A stretch of DNA of 64,000 bases, taken from Klebsiella phage vB_KpM_FBKp34. The translations under genes and the position numbers were made by a program. Location: sequence record MW394390.1. The stretch is one strand, 5' to 3'. The notes under the pieces are model-generated. The model was not told the DNA's origin and ran no database searches. It saw only the letters and a program-made list of their open reading frames with translations. Below, piece after piece: positions 3,685 to 49,305 of this stretch. Within the stretch, counting starts at the first letter, position 1; the number at the start of each line of letters is the position of its first letter.

Positions 3685-5484
3685 GTGGACTATAAACATA
3701 TAAAATGGTATGGTACTGAGGTTGATCTAACAAAACAAGGTCATACAGGATGCCCTAGATGTATTTCAAAAGGCAGGGACAAAAATAAAGATAATTTAAT
3801 GGTATATGGGGAAAACTCTGAGGGCTATCATACAGGAGCTTTTTGTTTCTCTTGTCAGTTAAGTATACCAGATGAAATTTATATGATGGAAAATGATGAA
3901 GATTATGAAGAGGAGGATATATTGGGTAGTGAGTTTAACTCAGAAATTCATGAAAAACTTAAAGAAACCACTGGCCTTAAATCCAATGGTTATAGAGGGA
4001 TTAGAGATGAAATCTCAAAATTCTTCGGTGTAAGATACAAATATGATGAAACAGATGGTAAAACAGTAAAAGCTGTACTTTATCCTACAACTACTTCTTA
4101 TGAGATATCTGGTTATAAACAAAGAACACACCCCAAAAATTTCAAGTCGCCCGGACCAATCGGTGAAACTGGAAAAGAGTGTGACTTATTTGGGCAGTTT
4201 CGCTTTAAAACCTTCAGTAACACTTTGTTAATAGTTGGAGGGGAACATGATCAGTTAGCTGCATATCAAATGCTGGTTGATGCTCAGAAAAATAAGAATT
4301 ATGATCCAATTGCGGTAGTTAGTGGCACAACTGGTGAATCTTCTGTTTACAAACAGCTTCAAAACAATTATGATTTCATTAATCAGTTTAAGAAGATTGT
4401 CATCTGTATGGATGCAGATAAAGCAGGTGCTGAAGCCACTGAACGAATTCATGAAGTTTTACCGAAAGGTAAAGTCTTTGTGATGAAGATGCGTTATAAA
4501 GATCCTAATGAATACATTTATAATAAAGAAACAGGGAAATTAGTCCACAAAGAACAAGAGTTCGTCAATGATTTCTGGGCTGCTAAACCTTATACTCCAC
4601 ATGGTGTAAAAAGTGCAGCAGACGGCTTGGATGAGATTGAAGAAGAGCTAAGAAAGCCACGCATTACCCTTCCTGAATACATGCATGAAATGCAAGTAAT
4701 GATGGGTGGTGGTATGATTCAGGGTAGGATTGCAAACATTATTGCAGACACTTCTAGTGGTAAATCCACTCATGTTAACCGTATGGTTTACCATTGGATT
4801 TTCAACAGTCCGGTTACTCCAACTATTGTTAGTCTTGAAGCAACTGCTGCACAGTATATGTTGGAAATGTTATCGATTCATTTAGAAGTAAACTTACTCT
4901 GGAAAATGGCTCCAGAAGAAATTATCACGTGGTTGAAGACAGAAGAAGGACAAAGGGTTTATAGGGAGTTAGCTTATAAAGAAGATGGTCAACCACGTTT
5001 CTACATTCTTGATGAACGGGCTGGTAGTATTAAAGATTTGGAAGCAGAGTTAGAAATGCTTTATAGAAAACATGACAGCAAGCTTTTTGTCATTGATGTT
5101 CTTTCAGATTTACTTCGTGGTTCTAGTGAAGAACATGCAGAAGACCATATGAACTTTCAAAGAAATATGGCTAAGAATGGTGTTACCATTGTTAATGTTC
5201 TACACACTCGTAAACCACCACAAAACTCTGAAGGTAAGCCAAGAAAAGTCACTGAGTATGATGCATTGGGTACTGGGAGTTTTGTGCAATCAGCAGCATA
5301 TAATATCGTATTAAATAGAGATAAACTTTCAGAGGATTCTATTGAGAAAAATACCACTGAAGTAGATTTACCAAAATGCCGTGGTGGTAAGACAGGGGCT
5401 GCGGGTAAATGGTATTATGAATTTGACAAAAGCAAATGTCATGATCTAAATGACTACTTCTCGGATAAACCAGCACGGAGTTAA
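3685..5484 (+). CDS. DNA primase-helicase (zinc ribbon, Toprim and DnaB-like ATPase)
   Basis: GTG start behind a GAGG SD. CPRC...CFSC zinc ribbon. Toprim motifs (VGGEHDQ, CMDADKAG). Walker A ADTSSGKST. Confidence 0.8.
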   Translation: MDYKHIKWYGTEVDLTKQGHTGCPRCISKGRDKNKDNLMVYGENSEGYHTGAFCFSCQLSIPDEIYMMENDEDYEEEDILGSEFNSEIHEKLKETTGLKSNGYRGIRDEISKFFGVRYKYDETDGKTVKAVLYPTTTSYEISGYKQRTHPKNFKSPGPIGETGKECDLFGQFRFKTFSNTLLIVGGEHDQLAAYQMLVDAQKNKNYDPIAVVSGTTGESSVYKQLQNNYDFINQFKKIVICMDADKAGAEATERIHEVLPKGKVFVMKMRYKDPNEYIYNKETGKLVHKEQEFVNDFWAAKPYTPHGVKSAADGLDEIEEELRKPRITLPEYMHEMQVMMGGGMIQGRIANIIADTSSGKSTHVNRMVYHWIFNSPVTPTIVSLEATAAQYMLEMLSIHLEVNLLWKMAPEEIITWLKTEEGQRVYRELAYKEDGQPRFYILDERAGSIKDLEAELEMLYRKHDSKLFVIDVLSDLLRGSSEEHAEDHMNFQRNMAKNGVTIVNVLHTRKPPQNSEGKPRKVTEYDALGTGSFVQSAAYNIVLNRDKLSEDSIEKNTTEVDLPKCRGGKTGAAGKWYYEFDKSKCHDLNDYFSDKPARS

Positions 5485-5500: not shown

Positions 5501-7717
5501 ATGAAGAAAATAGTTAACTGGAGAAAAGGTACAGTTGTAGATATTGAAACAGATGGACTTTTAGATGAATTAACAAAATGTCACGTAATGAGTTTTCAAA
5601 TGTGTGGCAAAGATAAACCTTCATCAATTGAAGGTAGTAATCTAAAAAGAATTAAGACAATGCTCCAATGGCATATCGACAATGAGATCCCAATTGTGGG
5701 CCATAACTTTATTCTGTTTGACTCCCCTGCCTTAGAAAAAATTACAGGTATGGATTTGTCTGAACTGAAGATAATTGATACTATGGCTTTAAGTTGGTAT
5801 CTTAATACCTTTAGGAAACAACATGGTCTTGACTCTTTTCATGAGGATTATGGAATCAAAAAACCAGAGATAACTGACTGGGAAAACTTAACTTACGAAG
5901 AGTATAGACATCGTTGTGAAGAAGATGTTAAGATTAACCAAGCACTATGGGATGATTTTAAAAATCGATTAACTGTGATGTATACCCTTTCAAAAGAACA
6001 AATTGATCTAGGGAATGTTGGAGGTACAAGGATGTCTCCAGATGAAGAGATCTACATTGACAGTTTAAAAGGTTTAAGCGTAGATGATCACATAGAAAGA
6101 TTTTTAACGTTCATGATGTTTAAAATGGATACATACCGTATTCAAGAGAAGGAAGGCATTCTTCTTGATAAAGTGCATATTGAAAAGAAAGAGGAAGAGT
6201 ACGCAGTTAAGGTGCAAGAATTAAAAACAGCTTTGGAATCTGTCATGCCAAAGATCGCAAAATACTCTAAGAAGAAAAAACCTGCAAAAGCCTTTAAACA
6301 AAATGGAGAATTAAGTGCTTCTGGATTAGCTTGGGAAGAGATAAAAACTCAGTACCTTGAGAAAACCACTGATGAATATGGAACAAGATTGGTTCTCTTA
6401 GGAAAAGATGAACCTACGATACTTGTTAATGGTGAAGAGAGATGCCGTCAGGTTGATGAAATAGAAGAGTTTCAAGTTTTTAAAGAGTATGAGAAACCTA
6501 ATGCCAACTCACCAGACCAAATTAAAGCTTTCCTATATGCACACGGATGGATACCAGAGACATTTAAGGAAGTAAAAGATAAGGAAGCAGAACAAGCTTG
6601 GCAGAATGAAATGAAAGCTTGGAAAGCTATCAAAGGAAGAAAGCCTAAGAAACCAGAACGCCCAGTAGCAAGACAAGTCCCTCAAGTTACAGTGCCTGGA
6701 GAAGATGGCAAAGAACTTTGTAGAAGTGTTGAACGTTTGGCTGAAGAAGTACCTGAAATCAAACTCTATTCAAACCTGAACCTTTTCAAACACCGTCATG
6801 GTGTGTTTAAAGGCTTCTTGAGAGATATGGATGAAAATGGAAGAATTAAAGCTTCTATTGGTGGTATGACAAATACCTTACGTGTTAAGCACAGAAATAT
6901 TGTGAATTTAGTTGGTGTTGATAAAATAGGTGGAGAAGATATTCGTGGATCATTAATTGCAGACCCTGGTATGGTGTTCTGTGGTAGCGATTTGAGTAGC
7001 CTTGAAGATCGAACCAAGCATCACTTCATGCTTCCACTTGATCCTGAATATGTAAACACAATGATGGCGGACGACTTTGACCCTCATCTTCTTATGGCTG
7101 TTACTGCACATTTCATCACAGAGCAAGAGATGCAGGACTACAAAGCAGGGATTAAACTACCTCATGTTGTCAAAGGTCGTAAGTTAGGTAAATCAACAAA
7201 CTACTCCGCAGTATATGGTGCAGGTGCCCCTAAGATTGCTTTAACAGCAGGTGTTGATGACGAGACAGGTCGATTGTTGCACACTTCCTACTGGAAACTG
7301 AACTGGAGTGTTCAGGCTATTGCAGAGGAACAAGTAATTATTGAACTCAGCCAAGATAATGATGAATATTCTGGTTGGCATAAGATGTGGCTCATTAACC
7401 CCATTAATGGATTCTTGTATAGTCTCCGTGCTAAGAAAGATGTATTCAGTACATTGTGTCAAGGTTCTGGTTCATTCTTCTTTGATATGTGGTTGAAAAA
7501 TGTATTACGTCGTCAGAAAGAGACTTTTGGTGTTCAAAAAGTTCAATTACAGATGCATGATGAATTAGCATTCTGCTTTAAGGATACTGAAAAACTTCGT
7601 GAGAAATTCTATCATATCGTTAAAGAAGCTATTTATGATGTTAATAAAGAATTTAAATTACGTAGGCCATTAGATAATGATATTCAATTTGGGTATGCTT
7701 ATTCAGATATACACTAA
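5501..7717 (+). CDS. family A DNA polymerase with 3'-5' exonuclease domain
   Basis: Exo I motif VVDIETDGL. Pol A motif B KLGKSTNYSAVYGAG. Motif C QMHDELAF. Confidence 0.85.
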   Translation: MKKIVNWRKGTVVDIETDGLLDELTKCHVMSFQMCGKDKPSSIEGSNLKRIKTMLQWHIDNEIPIVGHNFILFDSPALEKITGMDLSELKIIDTMALSWYLNTFRKQHGLDSFHEDYGIKKPEITDWENLTYEEYRHRCEEDVKINQALWDDFKNRLTVMYTLSKEQIDLGNVGGTRMSPDEEIYIDSLKGLSVDDHIERFLTFMMFKMDTYRIQEKEGILLDKVHIEKKEEEYAVKVQELKTALESVMPKIAKYSKKKKPAKAFKQNGELSASGLAWEEIKTQYLEKTTDEYGTRLVLLGKDEPTILVNGEERCRQVDEIEEFQVFKEYEKPNANSPDQIKAFLYAHGWIPETFKEVKDKEAEQAWQNEMKAWKAIKGRKPKKPERPVARQVPQVTVPGEDGKELCRSVERLAEEVPEIKLYSNLNLFKHRHGVFKGFLRDMDENGRIKASIGGMTNTLRVKHRNIVNLVGVDKIGGEDIRGSLIADPGMVFCGSDLSSLEDRTKHHFMLPLDPEYVNTMMADDFDPHLLMAVTAHFITEQEMQDYKAGIKLPHVVKGRKLGKSTNYSAVYGAGAPKIALTAGVDDETGRLLHTSYWKLNWSVQAIAEEQVIIELSQDNDEYSGWHKMWLINPINGFLYSLRAKKDVFSTLCQGSGSFFFDMWLKNVLRRQKETFGVQKVQLQMHDELAFCFKDTEKLREKFYHIVKEAIYDVNKEFKLRRPLDNDIQFGYAYSDIH

Positions 7718-34755: not shown

Positions 34756-34833
34756 TGGTAGACCGCCTGGGACTCGAACCCAGAACCTTCCGATTAAAAG
34801 TCGGATGCTACTAACCAATTGAGCTAGCGATCT
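34756..34833 (-). tRNA. tRNA-Lys (UUU)
   Basis: Hand-folded cloverleaf. Anticodon loop CUUUUAA. T arm CTGGG/TTCGAGT/CCCAG. CCA encoded. Confidence 0.7.
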
Positions 34834-34840
34834 ATATTAA

Positions 34841-34957
34841 TTAAAAACCCCAATTTTCTTCAGATTTGATAAGATCTGGTCTCTCATCATCGTGATACCA
34901 CTCATCACTAAAGATTCCTTCACCATAACCAATAAAACCATCAAATTGATCTTTCAT
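34841..34957 (-). CDS. small ORF (38 aa) between tRNAs
   Basis: AAGGAG SD then ATG. Product MKDQFDGFIGYGEGIFSDEWYHDDERPDLIKSEENWGF. Confidence 0.3.
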   Translation of the reverse strand: MKDQFDGFIGYGEGIFSDEWYHDDERPDLIKSEENWGF

Positions 34958-34979
34958 ATTTTTATTCTCCTTAAAAATT

Positions 34980-35055
<76 letters not shown>

Positions 35056-35070
35056 TTAATCTGGAGTTGA

Positions 35071-35250
35071 CTATAATACTTCTTCTAAATCTACGTCAAC
35101 ATCTTTTTTAAACTTTCTTTTCCCTTTCAAGGAAATATTGCCACAAAGTTTGCATCTTTGTCCTGGACTGATCATGTTGCAATCACAAGAGCAATAATGA
35201 TATGATTTTTTAGACTTCTTAGCTTTTATTCTATTACTATGTCTAATCAT
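35071..35250 (-). CDS. small zinc-ribbon protein (59 aa) between tRNAs
   Basis: MIRHSNRIKAKKSKKSYHYCSCDCNMISPGQRCKLCGN... Confidence 0.35.
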   Translation of the reverse strand: MIRHSNRIKAKKSKKSYHYCSCDCNMISPGQRCKLCGNISLKGKRKFKKDVDVDLEEVL

Positions 35251-35266
35251 AATAAACCTTTAAATT

Positions 35267-35342
35267 TGGAGCAACCGACGCGATTCGAACGCGCGACATC
35301 TGACTTGGAAGGACAGCGCTCTACCAACTGAGCTACGATTGC
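35267..35342 (-). tRNA. tRNA-Gly (UCC)
   Basis: D arm GCTCAGTTGGTAGAGC. Anticodon loop CUUCCAA. T arm GCGCG/TTCGAAT/CGCGT. Confidence 0.65.
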
Positions 35343-35753
35343 ATATTCACTAATGTATGATCTTAAGTCCTGAATATCGCCATATTCCCTACACAAGTAC
35401 CAAGTGTTTGCGAAACACTCCGCTTGTACCATTCCGTAATAATCAGTTCTCGCGATAACTAATCTACAGAATCACACCCCACAGGTGCAGCAAGGTTTTA
35501 AGTGTCTAAGACCATACATTAGTGTTTTGGATGGCAGGTACTGATCTCCTGCATTCTTTGAAGTGGCGGCAATTTCCACTTCTTGAGGTAAGCGCTGCCT
35601 AGCACCTGCGTATCAGTCTACGCATTCATCCAAAATTTTTATAATTTGGTGTGACTGATGGGGTATGATCCCATATCATCTCATTCACAGTGAGAAACGT
35701 TAGCCAATTACGCTCACAGTCACCATTGATTCTAAATATTATATGAATAACTT

Positions 35754-35813
35754 GGGTCTGTTTGGGACTTGAACCCAATATCAACGTCTTGATAGTCTCC
35801 ATACACAGACCAT
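35754..35813 (-). pseudogene. truncated tRNA-like element (acceptor and T arm intact, D and anticodon arms missing)
   Basis: GGTCTGT...TTGGG TTCAAGT CCCAA ACAGACC C. Only 26 nt lie between the acceptor strand and the T arm. Confidence 0.3.
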
Positions 35814-35963
35814 TATTTGGCACCAGAAGGAGGAATCGAACGCTCCTAATCAGGTCATGACTCCTGACTATCTCAAACCAAATACTGTTGTGTTGGCTAT
35901 TGTATAACGGCGAGCGCTCACCCTTATACAGACCTTCACTAGTATCGAGATCCTGGTATTGTT

Positions 35964-36055
35964 TGGTGCGGGTAGTGGGAGTCGAACCCACAGGAGGGTT
36001 TACCCCTCCGAGGGATTTTAAGTCCCTTGCGTACTGCCAATACCGCCATACCCGC
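35964..36055 (-). tRNA. tRNA-Leu (UAA), type II
   Basis: Acceptor GCGGGTA/TACCCGC. Anticodon loop CUUAAAA. Long variable arm. T arm TGGG/TTCGACT/CCCA. Confidence 0.7.
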
Positions 36056-36066
36056 ATTAAATCTGA

Positions 36067-36141
36067 TGACCCCCGGAGGATTCGAACCTACCTGCCTCTC
36101 GATTATGAGTCGATTGCTCATACCTAATGAGCTTGAGGGCC
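36067..36141 (-). tRNA. tRNA with CAU anticodon (Met, fMet or Ile2)
   Basis: Acceptor GGCCCTC/GGGGGTC (two G.U pairs). Anticodon loop CUCAUAA. CCA not encoded. Confidence 0.55.
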
Positions 36142-36210
36142 ATTTCTTGTATCTCTTTGATGTACTTACTGTATCAAATCTTCTAGCATCTTGTCAACAA
36201 CAAATTTTAA

Positions 36211-37025: not shown

Positions 37026-37299
37026 ATTAAACCTATGCTAAAATATAATTATTTAAACAACTAAAGGGACATTTTGAAAAAGTCTTATTTATCTAAATCA
37101 CACTCTAAAACTTTTAGTGTCACACATATTATTTTTGTTTCTAGATATAGAGAAATATATTCAATCTTAAGAAAGACCTGATTAACACTTAGCTCACTAA
37201 TCCCACACCTAAAGTGAGTGGGCTTATCGTTCGCAATTTGGTAATAGATTGAATAGTCTGTATCGTTCAATCGTTAGTTATGACGCTATATGCATATCA

Positions 37300-38700
37300 T
37301 CAGGCTATTTGACATCCTCCCCATCCTAAAGGATGGGGATTCCTAATTCATCGAGGTTTCTAATGAAACCTCTCCAAAGGCTTAAATTTCCGTGTGTCCC
37401 ACGGTATTTATTTCTATATAACTATAATATATTAAATTCTTTTATGCAGCAAGAGCTTTACAATTAAAAATTTCTAAACCTCTTTTATGAATATTTAAAG
37501 CAGCATTAATGTCTCGGTCATGGTCTGTTTTACAAGAAGGACACACCCAATGACGAACATTAAGTTTCAATTCCTCAAGAACATGACCACAACATGAACA
37601 AGTTTTAGACGAGGGATAGAATTGTTCTATCTTCACAATGCTACGTCCAAACCAGGATGCTTTATACTCAAGTTGCCTTACAAACTCACCCCAAGATGCA
37701 TCAGCAATATGTTTTGCCAATTTTCTATTTTTAATCATATTTTTAACTTTCAAAGTTTCAGTAGAAATTATTTGGTAAGTTTTTACTAAATTAGATGTTG
37801 CTTTATGCAATGCATCACGGCGAGAATCACTAACTTTAGCATGTGTTTTAGCAACTTTCAAACGCATTTTATTATAATTGCTTCCACCTTTTTTCATCCG
37901 ACTAAGTTTTCTCTGCAAACGTGCGAGACGTTTAGCATATTTCTTTGTAAACTTGCCATTTTTACCTTTAAGTCCATCTGCTGTAATATAAAGGTCTTTT
38001 AAACCAAGATCAATGCCTGTTGTCTTACTCGATATTGGCAGTTCTTCAATTTCAGTTTCACACAAACAAGACACAAAATATCTACCAGATGCATCTTTAC
38101 TGATAGTAATTGACGAAGGGTGACTTGGTAATTCACCATAACTCCATTTAACATCCAGCGAGACTTTCATTGATTTGGCAATGAAAAGTTGACCATTAAT
38201 GTATTTAAAAGCATTCTTCGTGAGATTAAATGAGTAACTATTATCATAACGGCTTTTGAACTTAGGAAATCTAGCTCTTCCAGAGAAAAAGTTGCTATAA
38301 GCTTTTTCTTGGTTTCTCAGTTCTTGTTGCAGTGCTACCACTGAAACTTCGTTAAGCCACTCATATTCTTTTTTAACTTTAGTTAACTCTCTCGATGCTT
38401 CGGCAAAGTTAATCTTATTTTTATCTTTTTCATAAGCCTCTTTTCTCCAAGCTAATATATGGTTATAGATAAAACGACAAGAACCAAATGTCTTAGCAAG
38501 AAGGATTTTTTGTTCTTGTGTTGGATAAAAACGCATTTTATAAGCTTTTAAAATAATCTTTTTCATTTGATCCCTTTCTAACTATCGTTCTCAGTTTGGT
38601 CAGAATTCACAAAGTGATCTAAATCATATTTAATAAATCATAAAATTGACATCCTCCTCACCCTAAAGATTGTGGAGTTTCTCCTTCATAGAACCTTATA
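37300..38700 (-). mobile_element. IS200/IS605-family tnpB-only element (IS1341-like) with subterminal hairpins
   Basis: The tnpB ORF is flanked by direct repeats TTGACATCCTCCYCAYCCTAAAGRAT at 37309-37336 and 38646-38670. Hairpins CCCCATCC taaa GGATGGGG and GAGGTTTC taat GAAACCTC lie just 3' of tnpB. Confidence 0.45.
37442..38566 (-). CDS. tnpB: TnpB (IS605 OrfB, RuvC-like RNA-guided nuclease)
   Basis: N-terminal RFYPTQEQ...FGSCRFIYN. RuvC-I motif [10 protein letters not shown]-terminal zinc ribbon CSCCGH...CPSCK. Confidence 0.75.
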
Positions 38701-38998
38701 ATCAAGACTCTCCAGAGACTTAAAATCGGTGATGTCCTCACCTACTGAAAATCATAATATACTACTTAAATCTAAAGTTCAAGCTTTTTACTTTTTCGTT
38801 TAATTGTCAAAAACGTTATCAATAGCTCTGTTGATACTCCCAGCCATAAATAACTGGGATTCTTCCTTCAATGGCTTTCTAACGATTACCTCCAGAAGCA
38901 TAACTTCGGCGTTAACCACACCTAGAAGATTACTTGTCTTTCGACTTGTTTCTCTCAACAAGAGACACTTTACAGAGTCCCTTAGTAAAAGTCAACGT

Positions 38999-39373
38999 CT
39001 ATTTAAAATTTGTTTCACACAGTAATGTGCAATGTCGAGAATCACCAACAATGAAAGCATATGCTGTTAGTGCTTCTGTATTAGCATACATTATCTCTTC
39101 GCATGGTGCAAACATCACTTTATTTCCTGAAATTTCACTGCCAATTGTATCTTTAATTGTTTTTGCTACAAGACTTAAAATTTTTAATACTTGATCCAAG
39201 TCTCCAGATTGAATTTTATCTACTATATCCTTAGTTAAGTGACCAACATCTATCGGGTAAAATTTAATACCATCTTCATGTTTTTGCAAAAATTTATAGC
39301 TTATTCCATCTTCTTCTAAGAGGTCTCTGACCATTTTATCCAACATACCAGATAAGTCAACTAAAATATTCAT
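38999..39373 (-). CDS. hypothetical protein
   Basis: ORF. Confidence 0.4.
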   Translation of the reverse strand: MNILVDLSGMLDKMVRDLLEEDGISYKFLQKHEDGIKFYPIDVGHLTKDIVDKIQSGDLDQVLKILSLVAKTIKDTIGSEISGNKVMFAPCEEIMYANTEALTAYAFIVGDSRHCTLLCETNFK

Positions 39374-39458
39374 ATGTTTCTCCTGTAGATATTAAACGTT
39401 AACCTTATAGACTCAAGGTTAACAAAACAGACTTAGTTTGTCAACATCTTGCTTAGAT

Positions 39459-40316
39459 TTAAGAATCTTGGATTATCAATACCCCATTTTTCTTCAATTC
39501 TCTAAACTTTTCAACTTGAATGCAAGCTTCTTGAAAATTTTTACTCAGGTGAGTAGGTACGAAAATTGCCTTTCCTGTTGGATTTAAATAAAATTTAAAA
39601 AATCTCTTTTCACACTCTATCAGATTTCCTTCATTTTTCAAGTAAATTTTGAAATTTTTATTACCCTTTTTGTAAGTTTTAAGCTTTGGAAAAACCTCAT
39701 ACAGTTTACTTATCTCGTCTTCCTCACAAACTGCAATAATTTTATCTGCTTTTATATTGTTTTCCTTCAATTTATACAGAGTATTATGAAGTACTGGGAA
39801 AACTTCACAAGGAATATTAAGACTATTTAATCTAGCTTGATTTATAAATCCATCTTTATCAAAGGTAACATGAAAAATGTACTGTTCATAGGATGTTACA
39901 GTAAACATCAAACTGGTGTTTAGATTCTTACTATCTGCTATTGATTTTTCTAATAGATCTAATGGGATGTTAAGTTGTATGGCACTATTTTTTATGGCCT
40001 TTAAATTTGCAATTTTAACTGTCAAAAATTCAGAATCTATTTCTTCCTGTAGATCATAAAAAATCTTATTGATTTTGTCTAAGATTGTAGATGGGTCTTG
40101 TATGTTTTTTGTTATACAATTTAAAATATTTTTTAATTTTTCAAAGGTATTCATGTAGTCTCCTGTATAAATATACATGTTTAATGTTGAGATATGACTA
40201 TACCAAAAGTCATAATGTGTGTCAATAAAAATATAAAAGAAAACCCCAGCATTTCTGCCAGGGTTTATCATGTCATTCAATTTTAAAGATTGGTCCTGTA
40301 TCTTCCTCTTCTTCAA
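39459..40316 (-). CDS. hypothetical protein
   Basis: ORF. Confidence 0.4.
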   Translation of the reverse strand: MKKRKIQDQSLKLNDMINPGRNAGVFFYIFIDTHYDFWYSHISTLNMYIYTGDYMNTFEKLKNILNCITKNIQDPSTILDKINKIFYDLQEEIDSEFLTVKIANLKAIKNSAIQLNIPLDLLEKSIADSKNLNTSLMFTVTSYEQYIFHVTFDKDGFINQARLNSLNIPCEVFPVLHNTLYKLKENNIKADKIIAVCEEDEISKLYEVFPKLKTYKKGNKNFKIYLKNEGNLIECEKRFFKFYLNPTGKAIFVPTHLSKNFQEACIQVEKFRELKKNGVLIIQDS

Positions 40317-40783: not shown

Positions 40784-40860
40784 TGGCAAACCCACTAGGA
40801 CTCGAACCTAGACTGTACGGTTTTGGAGACCGACATGCTGTCCAGTAACATTCTGGGAAT
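40784..40860 (-). tRNA. tRNA-Trp (CCA)-like, acceptor stem imperfect (possible pseudogene)
   Basis: Good T arm CTAGG/TTCGAGT/CCTAG and anticodon loop CUCCAAA. The acceptor ATTCCCA/TGGGTTT has two U.U mismatches. Confidence 0.35.
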
Positions 40861-40865
40861 ATTGT

Positions 40866-40941
40866 TGGTGGAACCCGATAGAATCGAACTATCTCCTAAT
40901 GCTCTTCAGGCATCCGCGCGAACCATCTACGCCAGAGTTCC
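40866..40941 (-). tRNA. tRNA-Phe (GAA)
   Basis: Acceptor GGAACTC/GGGTTCC. Anticodon loop CUGAAGA. T arm GATAG/TTCGATT/CTATC. CCA encoded. Confidence 0.7.
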
Positions 40942-40946
40942 TTTAT

Positions 40947-41021
40947 TGGCGGGCATACTTGGACTCGAACCAAGATCAAACGGTTAACAGCCGTCCGTAC
41001 TAACCTTTGTACTATACACCC
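40947..41021 (-). tRNA. tRNA-Asn (GUU)
   Basis: Anticodon loop CUGUUAA. D stem GTAC/GTAC. T arm CTTGG/TTCGAGT/CCAAG. Confidence 0.7.
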
Positions 41022-41216
41022 TTAAGTTTTACCATAATAGACAGAGATAGTTTTACCATTCTGATTCATTACGTATGCTACCTCATCTTCTTTAAGAAAG
41101 ATATTTTGATCTAGTCCAGAAATAGCAATACTCTTTTGTTTCGGGTTGAATCCGACACTATTGCCATCATGAATCTCTTCCCCACCTTCTGTCGAAATAA
41201 CTTTTACTGTTAACAT
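41022..41216 (-). CDS. hypothetical small protein
   Basis: AGGAG SD then ATG. Abuts the tRNA-Asn 5' end. Confidence 0.4.
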   Translation of the reverse strand: MLTVKVISTEGGEEIHDGNSVGFNPKQKSIAISGLDQNIFLKEDEVAYVMNQNGKTISVYYGKT

Positions 41217-41262
41217 TTGCTTCTCCTGTGGTTTGTCATCTCTGACTTTTAGTTATAAAAAT

Positions 41263-41340
41263 TGGTCTCCCCTACAGGATTCGAACCTGTGACCCGATGC
41301 ATCCAAAGCACCCACGCTGACCAGACTGCGCTAAGGAGAG
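41263..41340 (-). tRNA. tRNA-Pro (UGG)
   Basis: Anticodon loop UUUGGAU. T arm ACAGG/TTCGAAT/CCTGT. Confidence 0.7.
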
Positions 41341-41346
41341 ATAATT

Positions 41347-41421
41347 TGGAGGGTAGTAGTGGAATCTAACCACTCTAATACTGTTTTGCAGACAGATACA
41401 TGAACACTCTGACAACTACCC
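41347..41421 (-). tRNA. tRNA-Cys (GCA)
   Basis: Acceptor GGGTAGT/ACTACCC. Anticodon loop CUGCAAA. T arm AGTGG/TTAGATT/CCACT. The D arm is weak. Confidence 0.5.
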
Positions 41422-41427
41422 TTTAAT

Positions 41428-41504
41428 TGGTTGCGGCTATGGGTATTGCACCCATCTTACTCTAGTTTATGAGACTAGAAAGAACTCTCTGCCTCCCAAC
41501 CGCA
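41428..41504 (-). tRNA. second tRNA with CAU anticodon (Met, fMet or Ile2)
   Basis: Perfect anticodon stem CTAGT/CUCAUAA/ACTAG. The T loop TGCAATA is unusual. Confidence 0.5.
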
Positions 41505-41595
41505 ATAACTTAATACTTAATTATGGCGGGAACTTCATGCACTCCACCATGCGTTGGAAGCCAAGGAGTGTTCTCATGTAAGTATTCCCATGATT

Positions 41596-41671
41596 TGGTG
41601 CTACGGACTGGACTTGAACCAGTGACAACTCGATTATCGGTCGAGCATTCTACCAACTGAATTACCGAAGC
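41596..41671 (-). tRNA. tRNA-Ile (GAU)
   Basis: Anticodon arm CTCGA/CCGATAA/TCGAG. D arm ATTCAGTTGGTAGAAT. CCA encoded. Confidence 0.65.
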
Positions 41672-41677
41672 ATTGTT

Positions 41678-41763
41678 TGGCGGAAGATGCAAGGGTTGAA
41701 CTTGCACACCCTTTCGGATGGCGGTTTAGCAAACCGCTGTGGCTACCATTTCACCAATCTTCC
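41678..41763 (-). tRNA. tRNA-Ser (GCU), type II
   Basis: Acceptor GGAAGAT/ATCTTCC. Anticodon loop UUGCUAA. Long variable arm. Confidence 0.65.
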
Positions 41764-41843
41764 TAAATTTAAAGGCATTTAAGCCAGTTAATGTTTCCCT
41801 GGATTTATAGACACTGGTTCATTAACATCACACTCGTCTTATC

Positions 41844-41929
41844 TGGCGGTAGATTGAAGAGTCGAACTCCTGCCCTTTCGGACCCCTCCGGGTTCAAACC
41901 GGATTGCCAACCACTTAGCGGAACCTACC
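41844..41929 (-). tRNA. tRNA-Ser (UGA), type II
   Basis: Anticodon arm TCCGG/UUUGAAC/CCGGA. Long variable arm GGGGTCCGAAAGGGC. Confidence 0.65.
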
Positions 41930-41935
41930 TTTATT

Positions 41936-42013
41936 TGGTACATCTAGAGAGATTCGAACTCATCACTGACTGGAACCTAAATCCAGTGCCTCTACCAATT
42001 GGGCTATAGATGC
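41936..42013 (-). tRNA. tRNA with UAG anticodon (reads CUA; Leu-like) but class I architecture
   Basis: Perfect anticodon stem CTGGA/UUUAGGU/TCCAG. Short variable region. The T stem is weak. Confidence 0.45.
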
Positions 42014-42023
42014 ATTTATTATT

Positions 42024-42101
42024 TGGCGTTCTGTATGGTATTCGAACCCATAGAAATCCACCTTGAAAGGGTGGTGACTTTACCTGTTTGTCCAACAGAA
42101 C
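42024..42101 (-). tRNA. tRNA-Glu (UUC)
   Basis: Acceptor GTTCTGT/ACAGAAC. Anticodon arm CCACC/CUUUCAA/GGTGG. Confidence 0.6.
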
Positions 42102-42109
42102 ACAATTTT

Positions 42110-42223
42110 TGGCGGTGAATTCAGGAATCGAACCTGAGCCTACTCCATGACAAGGGAGATTGAATGCTGTAAAACTTCTCTAAGAAGTTATTTTTAGTTA
42201 TTCTACCACTAAACTAATTCACC
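42110..42223 (-). ncRNA. 114-nt tRNA-like gene with canonical acceptor, D and T arms and an internal ~38-nt insertion
   Basis: GGTGAAT TA GTTTAGTGGTAGAAT ... TCAGG TTCGATT CCTGA ATTCACC G CCA. The anticodon cannot be assigned. Confidence 0.4.
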
Positions 42224-42229
42224 TAAACT

Positions 42230-42306
42230 TGGCGCGTCCGACGGGTTACGATCCCGCATTCTCTCCCGTGACAGGGGAGTACCATTACCTAGCCAGCCCC
42301 AGACGC
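42230..42306 (-). tRNA. tRNA-Asp (GUC)
   Basis: Anticodon arm CTCCC/CUGUCAC/GGGAG. Acceptor GCGTCTG/CGGACGC. Confidence 0.65.
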
Positions 42307-49136: not shown

Positions 49137-49213
49137 GCACACAATACTAACTTATGATCTAGTTTATAGACTAACTTATGATTATATATTATTAATTATA
49201 AATAATTAATATG

Positions 49214-49258
49214 ATTTAGATCACATGTAAATTTATACAGTTGTTTTGTGATCTAAAT
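49214..49258. repeat. perfect 12-bp inverted repeat ATTTAGATCACA / TGTGATCTAAAT
   Basis: Arms at 49214-49225 and 49247-49258. A third GATCACAT lies at 49277-49284. Confidence 0.6.
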
Positions 49259-49305
49259 TTATGTTTTATCATCTTTTGATCACATAGTAAAGTTAAAAAA
49301 TAATC

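Follow-up and report, generated by a model that had tools for sequence, protein, structure and literature searches.

The window (the whole stretch of DNA that was analysed, 64 kb) carries a tnpB gene that is followed by a structured RNA module and preceded by two related modules on the same strand. This locus is probably a tnpB-only IS200/IS605 unit (IS1341-type) that is no longer mobile and is still functional, residing at an insertion hot spot with right-end relics. Its core, a phage tnpB with an omega RNA, is already known and ordinary: Klebsiella phage FBKp34 has the identical protein (100%), annotated as "transposase accessory protein", and gp188 of that phage was named an IS200/IS605 element in its 2021 paper.

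The tnpB gene and its product

The tnpB gene is located on the minus strand (37442..38566) and encodes a 374-aa protein, predicted from its sequence to be an RNA-guided endonuclease of the IS200/IS605 family (IS1341-type, tnpB-only). Three Pfam domains were matched, each far above its gathering score: HTH_OrfB_IS605 (PF12323, residues 1-49), OrfB_IS605 (PF01385, residues 172-280) and, in the C-terminal part, Cas12f1-like_TNB (PF07282, residues 292-359). The domain order is that of a TnpB, with an N-terminal HTH/WED-REC part, a split RuvC and a zinc-ribbon TNB domain. The NCBIfam models guided_TnpB and IS200_TnpB scored 356 bits (cut-off 100) and 414 bits (cut-off 425), respectively, and PHROG 506 was matched with an E-value of 5e-137. 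GIDLG is readable in the translation, and the zinc ribbon comprises two CxxC pairs (C323/C326 and C342/C345). The original prediction of a 374-aa TnpB with an HTH, GIDLG and a zinc ribbon was therefore borne out by Pfam, NCBIfam and the translation, including the HMM check it had proposed for the OrfB_IS605 and zinc-ribbon domains. The neighbouring ORFs have no Pfam match, and the genes downstream are Rz-like spanins.

The closest solved relative in the alignment is the ISDra2 TnpB (8h1j/8exa; E-value 5e-86). The RuvC triad D186/E270/D352 is intact and aligns with D191/E278/D361 of ISDra2; the three columns are invariant in an alignment of 30 homologues. Among the phage variants, the divergence of tnpB is 1.6-2.5% at codon positions 1 and 2 and 7-9% at position 3; dN is well below dS, and the ORF is intact in all four. 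As judged from these codon differences, tnpB is under purifying selection. With its catalytic residues preserved and selection of this kind acting on the gene, the protein is plausibly an active RNA-guided nuclease. TldR proteins are TnpB-derived, nuclease-dead transcription regulators in which the RuvC catalytic residues are lost or the C-terminus is truncated; this identity was ruled out by the intact triad and zinc ribbon.

The omega-RNA module and the predicted guide

Directly 3' of tnpB lies a module termed copy C (37309..37440, minus strand), which represents a putative omega-RNA scaffold together with the right end (RE) and ends ...GGAGGATGTCAA. The sequence confirms the two perfect hairpins that had been noticed 3' of tnpB (GAGGTTTC/GAAACCTC and CCCCATCC/GGATGGGG), and a third hairpin of 5 bp (CCGTG/CACGG) lies beside both. 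A 102-nt stretch 3' of tnpB folds with -38.6 kcal/mol, which corresponds to z = -4.3 against shuffles. Right ends of this type have a subterminal hairpin about 10 nt ahead of the cleavage site; here the hairpin CCCCATCC-TTTA-GGATGGGG is followed by AGGATGTCAA and the terminus ...GGAATCCCCATCCTTTAGGATGGGGAGGATGTCAA at 37309. The terminus GAGGA(T/A/G)GTCAA is kept in about 40 relatives.

A covariance model of the family (R1), built from non-phage relatives, matched copy C at 37309-37381 with 61.3 bits (E-value 4e-13), and in some 125 of 162 other loci it located a single copy immediately downstream of tnpB. Covariation in the copy C family also pointed to a conserved structure: among 34 relatives, 90% of the cells were paired, versus 68% in shuffles. 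Moreover, a compensatory C-G to U-A change was found in the RE hairpin of the related locus L002. The only Rfam matches in the region were copy C and the upstream copy B described below, both to HgcC (RF00062), a family defined in archaea; the matches span the full model, with 30.2 bits (E-value 1.7e-4) and 17.1 bits, respectively, which are below the gathering threshold of 50. An Rfam scan of three related loci gave nothing further on the element. The proposed omega-RNA region 3' of tnpB has thus gained support from the R1 score, the covariation and the fold, and these sequence comparisons make a convincing case that copy C is the cognate structured omega RNA, ending at the right-end boundary.

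A TnpB guide is normally no more than whatever DNA borders the transposon. By analogy with ISDra2-type biology, a 16-nt guide (ATAGCCTGATGATATG) is predicted at 37293..37308 on the minus strand, immediately following the conserved RE terminus. The 374-aa TnpB would be expressed from a promoter in the adjoining upstream segment; the transcript 3' of the stop codon would give a compact three-hairpin scaffold ending ...GGAGGAUGUCAA, and the next ~16 nt (AUAGCCUGAUGAUAUG) would serve as the guide. The TnpB-omega-RNA complex would then be expected to cleave DNA in which a TAM precedes the guide sequence. Its target may be an allele of the phage locus that does not carry the unit, or a competitor or host sequence.

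Tandem right-end-like copies

The near-identical direct repeats reported to flank tnpB are present at 37309-37339 and 38646-38676 (TTGACATCCTCC...), but they are not IS ends. Each repeat is just the core of a more extended similarity (~95-130 nt; 37307-37440 versus 38644-38778); by this comparison, the repeats mark where right-end-like modules end on the 3' side, and the upstream one belongs to a right-end paralogue, one of two upstream copies. Three such modules are arranged in tandem on the tnpB strand, with ends at 38831, 38646 and 37309 and terminus-to-terminus spacings of 185 nt and 1337 nt. R1 found no further scaffold elsewhere in the 64-kb window, which has one tnpB only.

Copy B (38646..38768, minus strand), the RE/omega-scaffold-like paralogue upstream of tnpB, was matched by nhmmer with 87.7 bits and by R1 with 33.5 bits (E-value 3e-6). 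Its fold is no better than that of shuffles (z = -0.5), and a promoter-like site lies at 38754-38782. The third copy, A (38831..38950, minus strand), ends ...CCCAGTTATTTATGGCTGGGAGTATCAA and scored 70.8 bits with nhmmer and 22.7 bits with R1 (E-value 1e-3); its fold has z = -3.1, and its promoter-like site is at 38967-38995. The terminal hairpin of copy A has three substitutions in L003, with all pairing kept. The match to copy A is truncated in L001, and the phage KP13-16 has this copy as far as window position 38860. The copies A, B and C are mutually about 60-75% alike, and the scores follow the order C > B > A. The A and B scaffolds are 95-99% conserved between the variants, which is at least equal to the third codon positions of tnpB.

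Most simply, copies A and B would be remnants of earlier elements, as the fall in score from C to A and the lack of a fold in B are expected of relics. However, relic status does not account for their 95-99% conservation, nor for the good fold of copy A and the pairing kept through three substitutions. Other origins of copy B were tried and rejected. A tblastn search with 121 TnpB proteins against 38640-40300 gave no match, which speaks against copy B being a remnant preceded by leftover tnpB coding sequence. A nested insertion into the second hairpin of copy B was also rejected: B aligns with the right end without a break at the supposed junction, and the remainder of B does not reappear after copy C.

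Variable patches after each terminus

The four variants are 92-100% identical elsewhere, but directly behind each ...TCAA terminus they carry 22-124 nt of unrelated sequence. On the minus strand of the window, these patches are V0 (38793..38830), V1 (38601..38645) and V2 (37242-37308), the first part of V2 being the predicted guide. The V segments of different variants are unrelated, with z between -1.0 and 1.7 against shuffles; whereas the scaffolds are 95-99% identical. The conservation boundary coincides exactly with the scaffold/guide junction, three times. V1 contains a -10-like TATGAT, 18 nt after the ATGTCA of copy B's end, and the two are likely the tnpB promoter. Differing insertion points in a single ancestral sequence were rejected as the origin of the patches, since V1 and V2 together vary in length and sequence between the variants. 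Beyond the phiKp34-like phages, the region of the Aeromonas phages phiA009 and phiA019 was compared for a variable-guide pattern, and the two are identical there.

The complete change of sequence from each ...TCAA terminus in four variants is not accounted for by a stranded unit. It would be accommodated by a primitive, CRISPR-array-like locus in which A, B and C would each be transcribed from a promoter-like site of its own and loaded on TnpB, and the guides V0, V1 and V2 turn over fast against competitors or host DNA. This multi-guide arrangement would fit the three same-strand copies that the independent family model found in all four variants, the promoter-like sites just upstream of A and B, the fold and the pair-keeping substitutions of copy A, and the junctions at which conserved scaffolds give way to unrelated segments; moreover, the tandem arrangement is rare in the 162 other loci. 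Nevertheless, we consider it unlikely. The copies are just about 60-75% alike, the fold of copy B is at the shuffled level, and the model scores drop from 61 to 33 to 23 bits. V1 bears a promoter -10 element in three of the four variants and is hence not simply a guide; moreover, we know of no route by which a TnpB locus could gain several guides or change guides.

The search for targets also yielded no protospacer-like match for any V segment. The 16-mers of six guides had no match with up to three mismatches in the window or in the loci L001-L008, and V2 and V1 gave only chance-level matches in the phage collection. Two 18-mers were searched in IMG/VR: one had no match, and the other matched once, within what is probably a structural gene and lacking a TAM-like motif upstream; this match was judged to be chance. 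When all 12 V segments were compared with the phage loci by short-word blast, nothing in guide register was found. Somewhat less likely still is the full version of this idea, that A, B and C are all working omega-RNA genes whose guides the phiKp34-like phages exchange rapidly, so that a natural multi-guide TnpB system of a lytic phage would act against competing phages or host DNA, as a living intermediate between transposon nucleases with a single guide and CRISPR arrays.

Left end, TnpA and mobility

The left end of the relatives consists of TCATC/TTATC, 13-20 nt and a hairpin, which lies 70-125 nt before the ATG. Their TAM is therefore probably TCATC/TTATC-like, and not the TTAC-like target site that had been proposed. 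No canonical left-end hairpin was found in the 79 nt before the tnpB ATG, only an 18-mer (CCAAACTGAGAACGATAG; 38583..38600, minus strand) directly ahead of the RBS and ATG. The same 18-mer (CCAAATTGCGAACGATAA) recurs after V2, where it is followed by the hairpin CCCACTCAC-TTTA-GGTGTGGG. This left-end-like module (37202..37241, minus strand; repeat D11) is conserved in all variants, and its geometry fits the left ends of the relatives (~13-20 nt, then a hairpin with a TTTA loop). As the left-end hairpin before the ATG is lacking, a clean inserted element cannot be delimited. The original prediction of an inserted tnpB-only IS200/IS605 element thus holds for the type and the right end, but not for the left end or for a delimitable insertion.

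TnpA was correctly predicted to be missing: tblastn over the 64-kb window gave a best E-value of 2.4. The probe was an IS200 TnpA sequence, and it was validated by tnpA matches in 8 control loci. TnpA is also missing in most of the relatives (152 of 160 loci). With neither TnpA nor a left-end hairpin, the unit cannot transpose by itself.

An element that is still mobile with the help of a host TnpA acting in trans was also considered. The imperfect terminal hairpin of copy B would then be the left end, with the TTGAT 17 nt upstream as the target motif; a unit of 1.39 kb (38701 to 37309) would move, and TnpA acting at the RE-V-LE junctions would make the patches. The hairpin of B does lie ~89 nt before the ATG, as do the left-end hairpins of the relatives; its left foot is GAGAAAC as in their left ends, the TTGAT (38702-38706) is at the canonical distance, and the variability begins exactly at the TnpA cleavage position ...TCAA|. 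However, the collinear alignment of copy B to the right end extends over ~95-130 nt and takes in the RE-type terminus GGAGGATGTCAA, whereas the left and right ends of canonical relatives have just a ~27-nt hairpin in common. The motif of the relatives is TCATC/TTATC rather than TTGAT, and V1 and V2 of the variants do not sum to a common ancestral sequence. The unit also occupies the same place in the four variants, with a single copy per window, and no empty site was found in the phage records or the IMG/VR scan. Mobility of this kind is improbable.

Related phages and the insertion slot

The comparison with related phages that had been suggested was informative in part: the same tnpB was found at the same place in the four variants, and an unrelated 419-aa TnpB (30% identical) occupies the same slot in KP13-16, but no empty site was recovered. 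Megablast and blastn searches of the region against 50,697 phage records gave only KP13-16, with its other TnpB, and tRNA matches. The 107-aa flanking protein had no match when IMG/VR was scanned with it; looked up exactly, this protein and the 61-aa flanking protein gave only contigs that carry tnpB, or nothing. The region is plastic, with a 1.2-kb insertion in the window (39009-40235), a gene for 231 aa in L002 and another cassette in KP13-16. TnpB in phages had been called uncommon, which did not hold: homologues were found in 424 of the 50,697 phage records (all lifestyles pooled), including large Staphylococcus, Enterococcus and Aeromonas phages.

An inert tnpB cassette that is nearing loss, with the patches as ordinary recombination scars in a plastic region by the tRNA cluster, would suit this plasticity and the missing TnpA and left-end hairpin, but it is the least probable explanation, given the ORF intact in four variants with dN well below dS, the intact catalytic triad, the compensatory change in the RE hairpin, and patches that start at three homologous termini and are not scattered. 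The favoured explanation is a tnpB unit that is passed on vertically in the phiKp34-like phages, at a probable hot spot for such elements, with A and B upstream, the left-end-like hairpin downstream and the other TnpB cassette in KP13-16.

Comparison with known systems

The ISDra2 TnpB from the Deinococcus radiodurans IS200/IS605 element (PDB 8h1j, 8exa, 8bf8) has the same domain order and is of the same length class (408 aa, versus 374 aa in the phage). The two proteins align end to end, with the D-E-D RuvC triad and the zinc ribbon in both. The omega RNA (reRNA) of ISDra2 and that predicted for the phage are structured RNAs encoded by the 3' end of the gene and the sequence behind it; both finish at the right-end boundary and continue into the guide. 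Unlike ISDra2, the phage unit has no TnpA partner and no left-end hairpin before the gene, and it resides in a lytic phage genome. Its scaffold is compact, with an 8-bp hairpin in place of the central domain, and two additional right-end-like copies are located upstream. The TAM of ISDra2 is TTGAT; whereas TCATC/TTATC is suggested by the left ends of the relatives of the phage TnpB.

The IS1341-type tnpB-only elements with sense-overlapping 3' RNAs (sotRNA), together with the Rfam family HgcC (RF00062), are another close comparison (Gomes-Filho et al. 2015, PMC4615843). The phage unit is similar in having tnpB without tnpA, and a 3'-end non-coding RNA with the right-end hairpin. Homologous TnpBs of other phages (44-59% identity) include those of the Aeromonas phages phiA009/phiA019 and of the Klebsiella phages ZCKp20p and RSU-F4K5, as well as GipA of Gifsy-1. 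The compact right end of phiA009 is 79% identical over 75 nt and ends GAGGATGTCAA. In phiA009 the left end is canonical (TTTATC, hairpin, promoter) and only one right end is present; in the window, by contrast, the left-end hairpin is missing and the right-end-like copies number three.

Copies A and B could also be compared with PATEs, miniature IS200/IS605 derivatives in which the left and right ends are fused (PMC4615843). Like these, A and B are short (about 120-150 nt), gene-less and right-end-like, and they adjoin a full tnpB unit; however, A and B have no recognisable left-end half, and are in tandem at one locus, not dispersed. CRISPR-like arrays adjoining tnpB have been described in the Thermus Lalka phages (PMC11437467). 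The phage locus shares with these arrays, and with the type V (Cas12) CRISPR loci derived from TnpB, a repeated RNA module that alternates, near a TnpB-family nuclease, with short segments that differ between close relatives. Nevertheless, the phage repeats are about 120-130 nt long and only 60-75% alike, the variable segments are 22-124 nt, and tnpB lies between B and C. Adaptation genes were not noticed among the loci that were examined. A CRISPR array or type V CRISPR-Cas identity was rejected, because the repeats are neither short nor near-identical and their spacing (185 nt and 1337 nt) is irregular.

Biological meaning

The tnpB itself is one more phage-borne TnpB with an omega RNA, and is of minor weight. 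The anatomy around it could matter: three tandem scaffolds, with a complete change of sequence at the first base after each, in phages that are a few per cent apart. Should this pattern reflect guide turnover, the locus would be informative on RNA-guided conflict between phages and on the descent of CRISPR arrays from TnpB right ends. If instead a Y1-transposase or repair activity acts at the right-end termini, it would illustrate the scarring and remodelling of phage genomes by such elements.

The tnpB gene and its neighbourhood

The one long ORF of region 37300-38700 is tnpB (37442..38566, minus strand), which encodes a protein of 374 aa. The Pfam search revealed three TnpB domains in this protein (E 4e-20 to 4e-26): HTH_OrfB_IS605 (1-49), OrfB_IS605 (172-280), and the Cas12f1-like TNB (292-359). 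The NCBIfam scores were 356 bits for guided_TnpB (cut-off 100) and 414 bits for IS200_TnpB, slightly below its strict cut-off of 425. The nearest natural protein of solved structure is ISDra2 TnpB (8h1j, 8exa; E 5e-86, residues 6-364 aligned), and its catalytic D191, E278 and D361 align with D186, E270 and D352 of the phage protein. Across 30 aligned homologues, neither these three residues nor the four cysteines of the zinc ribbon vary. The domain matches, the ISDra2 alignment, and the intact D-E-D residues and zinc ribbon thus bear out the original prediction of a TnpB. Between phage variants the gene differs by 1.6-2.5% at codon positions 1 and 2 and by 7-9% at position 3; purifying selection acts on tnpB.

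The proposed absence of TnpA was confirmed: a tblastn probe that detects tnpA in eight fetched control loci found none in the 64 kb, and the ORFs flanking tnpB had no Pfam match. The genes downstream of tnpB encode two Rz-like spanins and one 61-aa protein without known function, and tRNA genes flank the region on either side. The 17 tRNA genes are all on the minus strand and form two clusters (34756-36142 and 40784-42306), with the spanin-tnpB region between them. A 1.2-kb insertion with two ORFs (39009-40235) is missing in phage KP13-16 (L001) and in the variants L003/L004, which is a further sign of a plastic region between the tRNA clusters. It contains a 124-aa ORF of unknown function (PHROG 8569) and the greater part of a 285-aa ORF (39459-40316) that has no match in Pfam or PHROG; in the variants L002 and L171 a related version is present, which includes a 231-aa gene. 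Beside the tRNA array, YrlA (Y RNA-like) Rfam matches of about 40 bits (gathering score 69) were seen in L003 (1374-1481), L002 (1065-1171) and L001 (8976-9082). L001 (8324-8399), L003 (2057-2132) and L002 (1728-1803) have tmRNA-like matches as well (31.6 bits, E 3e-9). Both kinds may be tRNA-like RNAs of the phage tRNA cluster.

Relatives and the occupied slot

The TnpB is 100% identical to a protein already annotated as "transposase accessory protein" (Klebsiella phage FBKp34), and the 2021 paper on this phage names its gp188 as an IS200/IS605 element. The gene lies at the same place in L002 (a 144-kb Logan contig, 97% protein identity), L003/L004 (94%) and L171 (a JGI metagenome contig); the next closest TnpBs, from Enterobacterales, are about 61% identical. 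A tblastn search of 50,697 phage records gave 424 with homologues; among them are large phages of Staphylococcus, Enterococcus, Brochothrix, Geobacillus, Aeromonas and Vibrio. The core finding thus holds but had been annotated before and is not rare, and the supposed rarity of TnpB in phages was not upheld.

The suggested comparison with related phages could be made. KP13-16 (OP617741; Klebsiella phage, Stephanstirmvirinae) is 95-99% identical to the window on either side of the slot. Within it (window 38860 to 37024) KP13-16 carries another cassette, whose 419-aa TnpB is just 30% identical to the window TnpB; this indicates that the locus is a hot spot for TnpB elements. The similarity of KP13-16 to the window breaks off within the terminal hairpin of the right-end-like copy A (see below). 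An empty site without tnpB was not found in the related phage sequences searched. The hot spot is located within the tRNA region of the phage. Just upstream of the 419-aa TnpB, in minus orientation (L001 ~5560-5650), is a CRISPR-like repeat, GTGTTCCCCACATGCGTGGGGATAAACCG, presumably of type I-E-like kind, after which come a 33-nt spacer and another, degenerate repeat; two more repeat-like units are 3' of this tnpB (~4010-4080). Neither the window nor any other fetched locus has the repeat, and nothing else in the phage collection matches its spacer. These repeats may be a phage-borne mini-array or the ends of the KP13-16 TnpB element.

The omega-RNA module and the left end

Directly 3' of the tnpB stop codon is a right-end module (copy C, 37440 to 37309, minus strand) with three hairpins (CCGUG/CACGG, GAGGUUUC/GAAACCUC and UCCCCAUCC/GGAUGGGGA) and a final 9-nt tail, GGAUGUCAA. 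Its fold is -38.6 kcal/mol (z = -4.3). The terminus GAGGA(T/A/G)GTCAA was found 100-180 nt past tnpB in about 40 distant relatives (cyanobacteria, actinomycetes, Ktedonobacter, viral contigs). In an alignment of 34 regions with this ending, the three helices were 90% paired versus 68% in column shuffles, and 121 cells were changed on both sides of helices versus 46 expected. With a covariance model built on Aeromonas phage phiA009 and 27 non-phage relatives, one module was found directly past tnpB in some 125 of 162 other loci. The model has exactly three matches in the window, all on the minus strand: copy C (61.3 bits, E 4e-13), copy B (33.5 bits, E 3e-6) and copy A (22.7 bits, E 1e-3), which are also present in L002, L003 and L171. 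Moreover, the terminal hairpin of copy C has a compensatory C-G to U-A change in L002. In Rfam, the region matches HgcC only (RF00062; 30.2 bits, below the gathering score), which was connected with 3' RNAs of IS1341-type tnpB genes (PMC4615843). The hairpins, fold, covariation and model score of copy C support the candidate omega-RNA region 3' of tnpB. The copy C regions of L002 (7148-7231) and L003 (7149-7232) also match weakly the Helicobacter pylori small RNA HPnc0580 (28 bits, E 0.85).

The guide predicted from the analogy with ISDra2 is ATAGCCTGATGATATG, the 16 nt past 37309. No target of the guide was found in the window, related loci, the phage collection or IMG/VR, nor was an empty site, and therefore both the TAM and the biological target are inferred. 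In relatives, the left end is situated 70-125 nt ahead of the ATG, with TCATC or TTATC, the probable TAM, 13-20 nt upstream of the left-end hairpin. The 79 nt ahead of tnpB in the phage contain no such hairpin. The right end of phiA009 is 79% identical to that of the window, and phiA009 has a canonical left end of this kind.

Tandem copies and replaced patches

The direct repeats flanking tnpB (37309-37339 and 38646-38676) had been taken as termini of an inserted IS, but they form the 3' end of a similarity that extends over ~95-130 nt. The upstream repeat is copy B (38646-38768, minus strand), of right-end type and collinear with the entire module, terminus GGAGGATGTCAA included; left ends of relatives have just a ~27-nt hairpin in common with the right end. 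The repeats were therefore rejected as IS ends. A third right-end-like copy, A (38831-38950, minus strand), ends with ...CCCAGTTATTTATGGCTGGGAGTATCAA. Copy A folds well (z = -3.1), and its terminal hairpin has three substitutions in L003, all pairing-preserving; the fold of copy B is no better than shuffles. Among 162 other loci, L035 from Okeania sp. SIO1I7 is alone in having a second same-strand copy upstream of tnpB (1963-2121, 38 bits), which ends ~380 nt before the gene.

The four phage variants are 92-100% identical over 39000-37026 apart from three patches, each starting at the first base past a ...TCAA terminus: V0 after copy A (38830-38793), V1 after copy B (38645-38601) and V2 after copy C (37308-37242), all on the minus strand. 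Across variants the patches span 22-124 nt and, except for V0 of L002 and L171, resemble each other no more than shuffled sequence does (z -1.0 to 1.7). This divergence far exceeds the 7-9% of third codon positions, so the patches were replaced, not mutated. An 18-mer, CCAAAYTGNGAACGATAR, stands after both V1 and V2. After V2 the next feature beyond it is a left-end-like hairpin (CCCACTCAC-TTTA-GGTGTGGG, 37202-37222); after V1 the hairpin is absent, and the RBS and ATG of tnpB come next. The elements of the locus thus follow each other in the order RE_A, V0, RE_B, V1, left end without hairpin, tnpB, RE_C, V2, left-end-like hairpin, phage genes (RE, right end). V1 has a -10-like hexamer in three of the four variants, 18-19 nt past the ATGTCA of the copy B terminus, and a consensus promoter scan also lists this site for the window; it is likely the tnpB promoter. 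The window V1 has a 17-nt exact match, AATATGATTTAGATCAC, to 49208-49224, in an intergenic region between divergent genes (49196-49262) that has an inverted repeat, ATTTAGATCAC...GTGATCTAAAT; this is possibly a shared promoter or operator motif.

Interpretation

Judged from sequence, the locus is probably a TnpB-omega-RNA unit that is stranded but still functions, in a hot spot where earlier elements have left remnants. Having neither TnpA nor a left-end hairpin, the unit would be stranded and vertically inherited within the phiKp34-like phages, and copies A and B would be remnants of earlier elements in the hot spot. Relics are the simplest reading of these copies; however, it explains neither their good conservation nor why the three replaced patches begin precisely where right ends terminate. 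Three less likely readings may account for this: a multi-omega-RNA locus with guides in rapid turnover, a host Y1 transposase acting in trans on RE-V-LE junctions, or a break-and-repair hot spot. Several points speak against the multi-guide reading: the copies are just ~60-75% alike, copy B folds no better than shuffles, the searches gave no protospacer, and V1 would also serve as promoter.

The element is thus already annotated and of a known kind; the original prediction was right on the gene and the RNA, and wrong on the repeats and the rarity. The Okeania locus could be a comparison case for tandem right ends. The significance of the phage locus is moderate, and comes solely from its right-end copies in tandem and from the replaced sequence that follows each of them.
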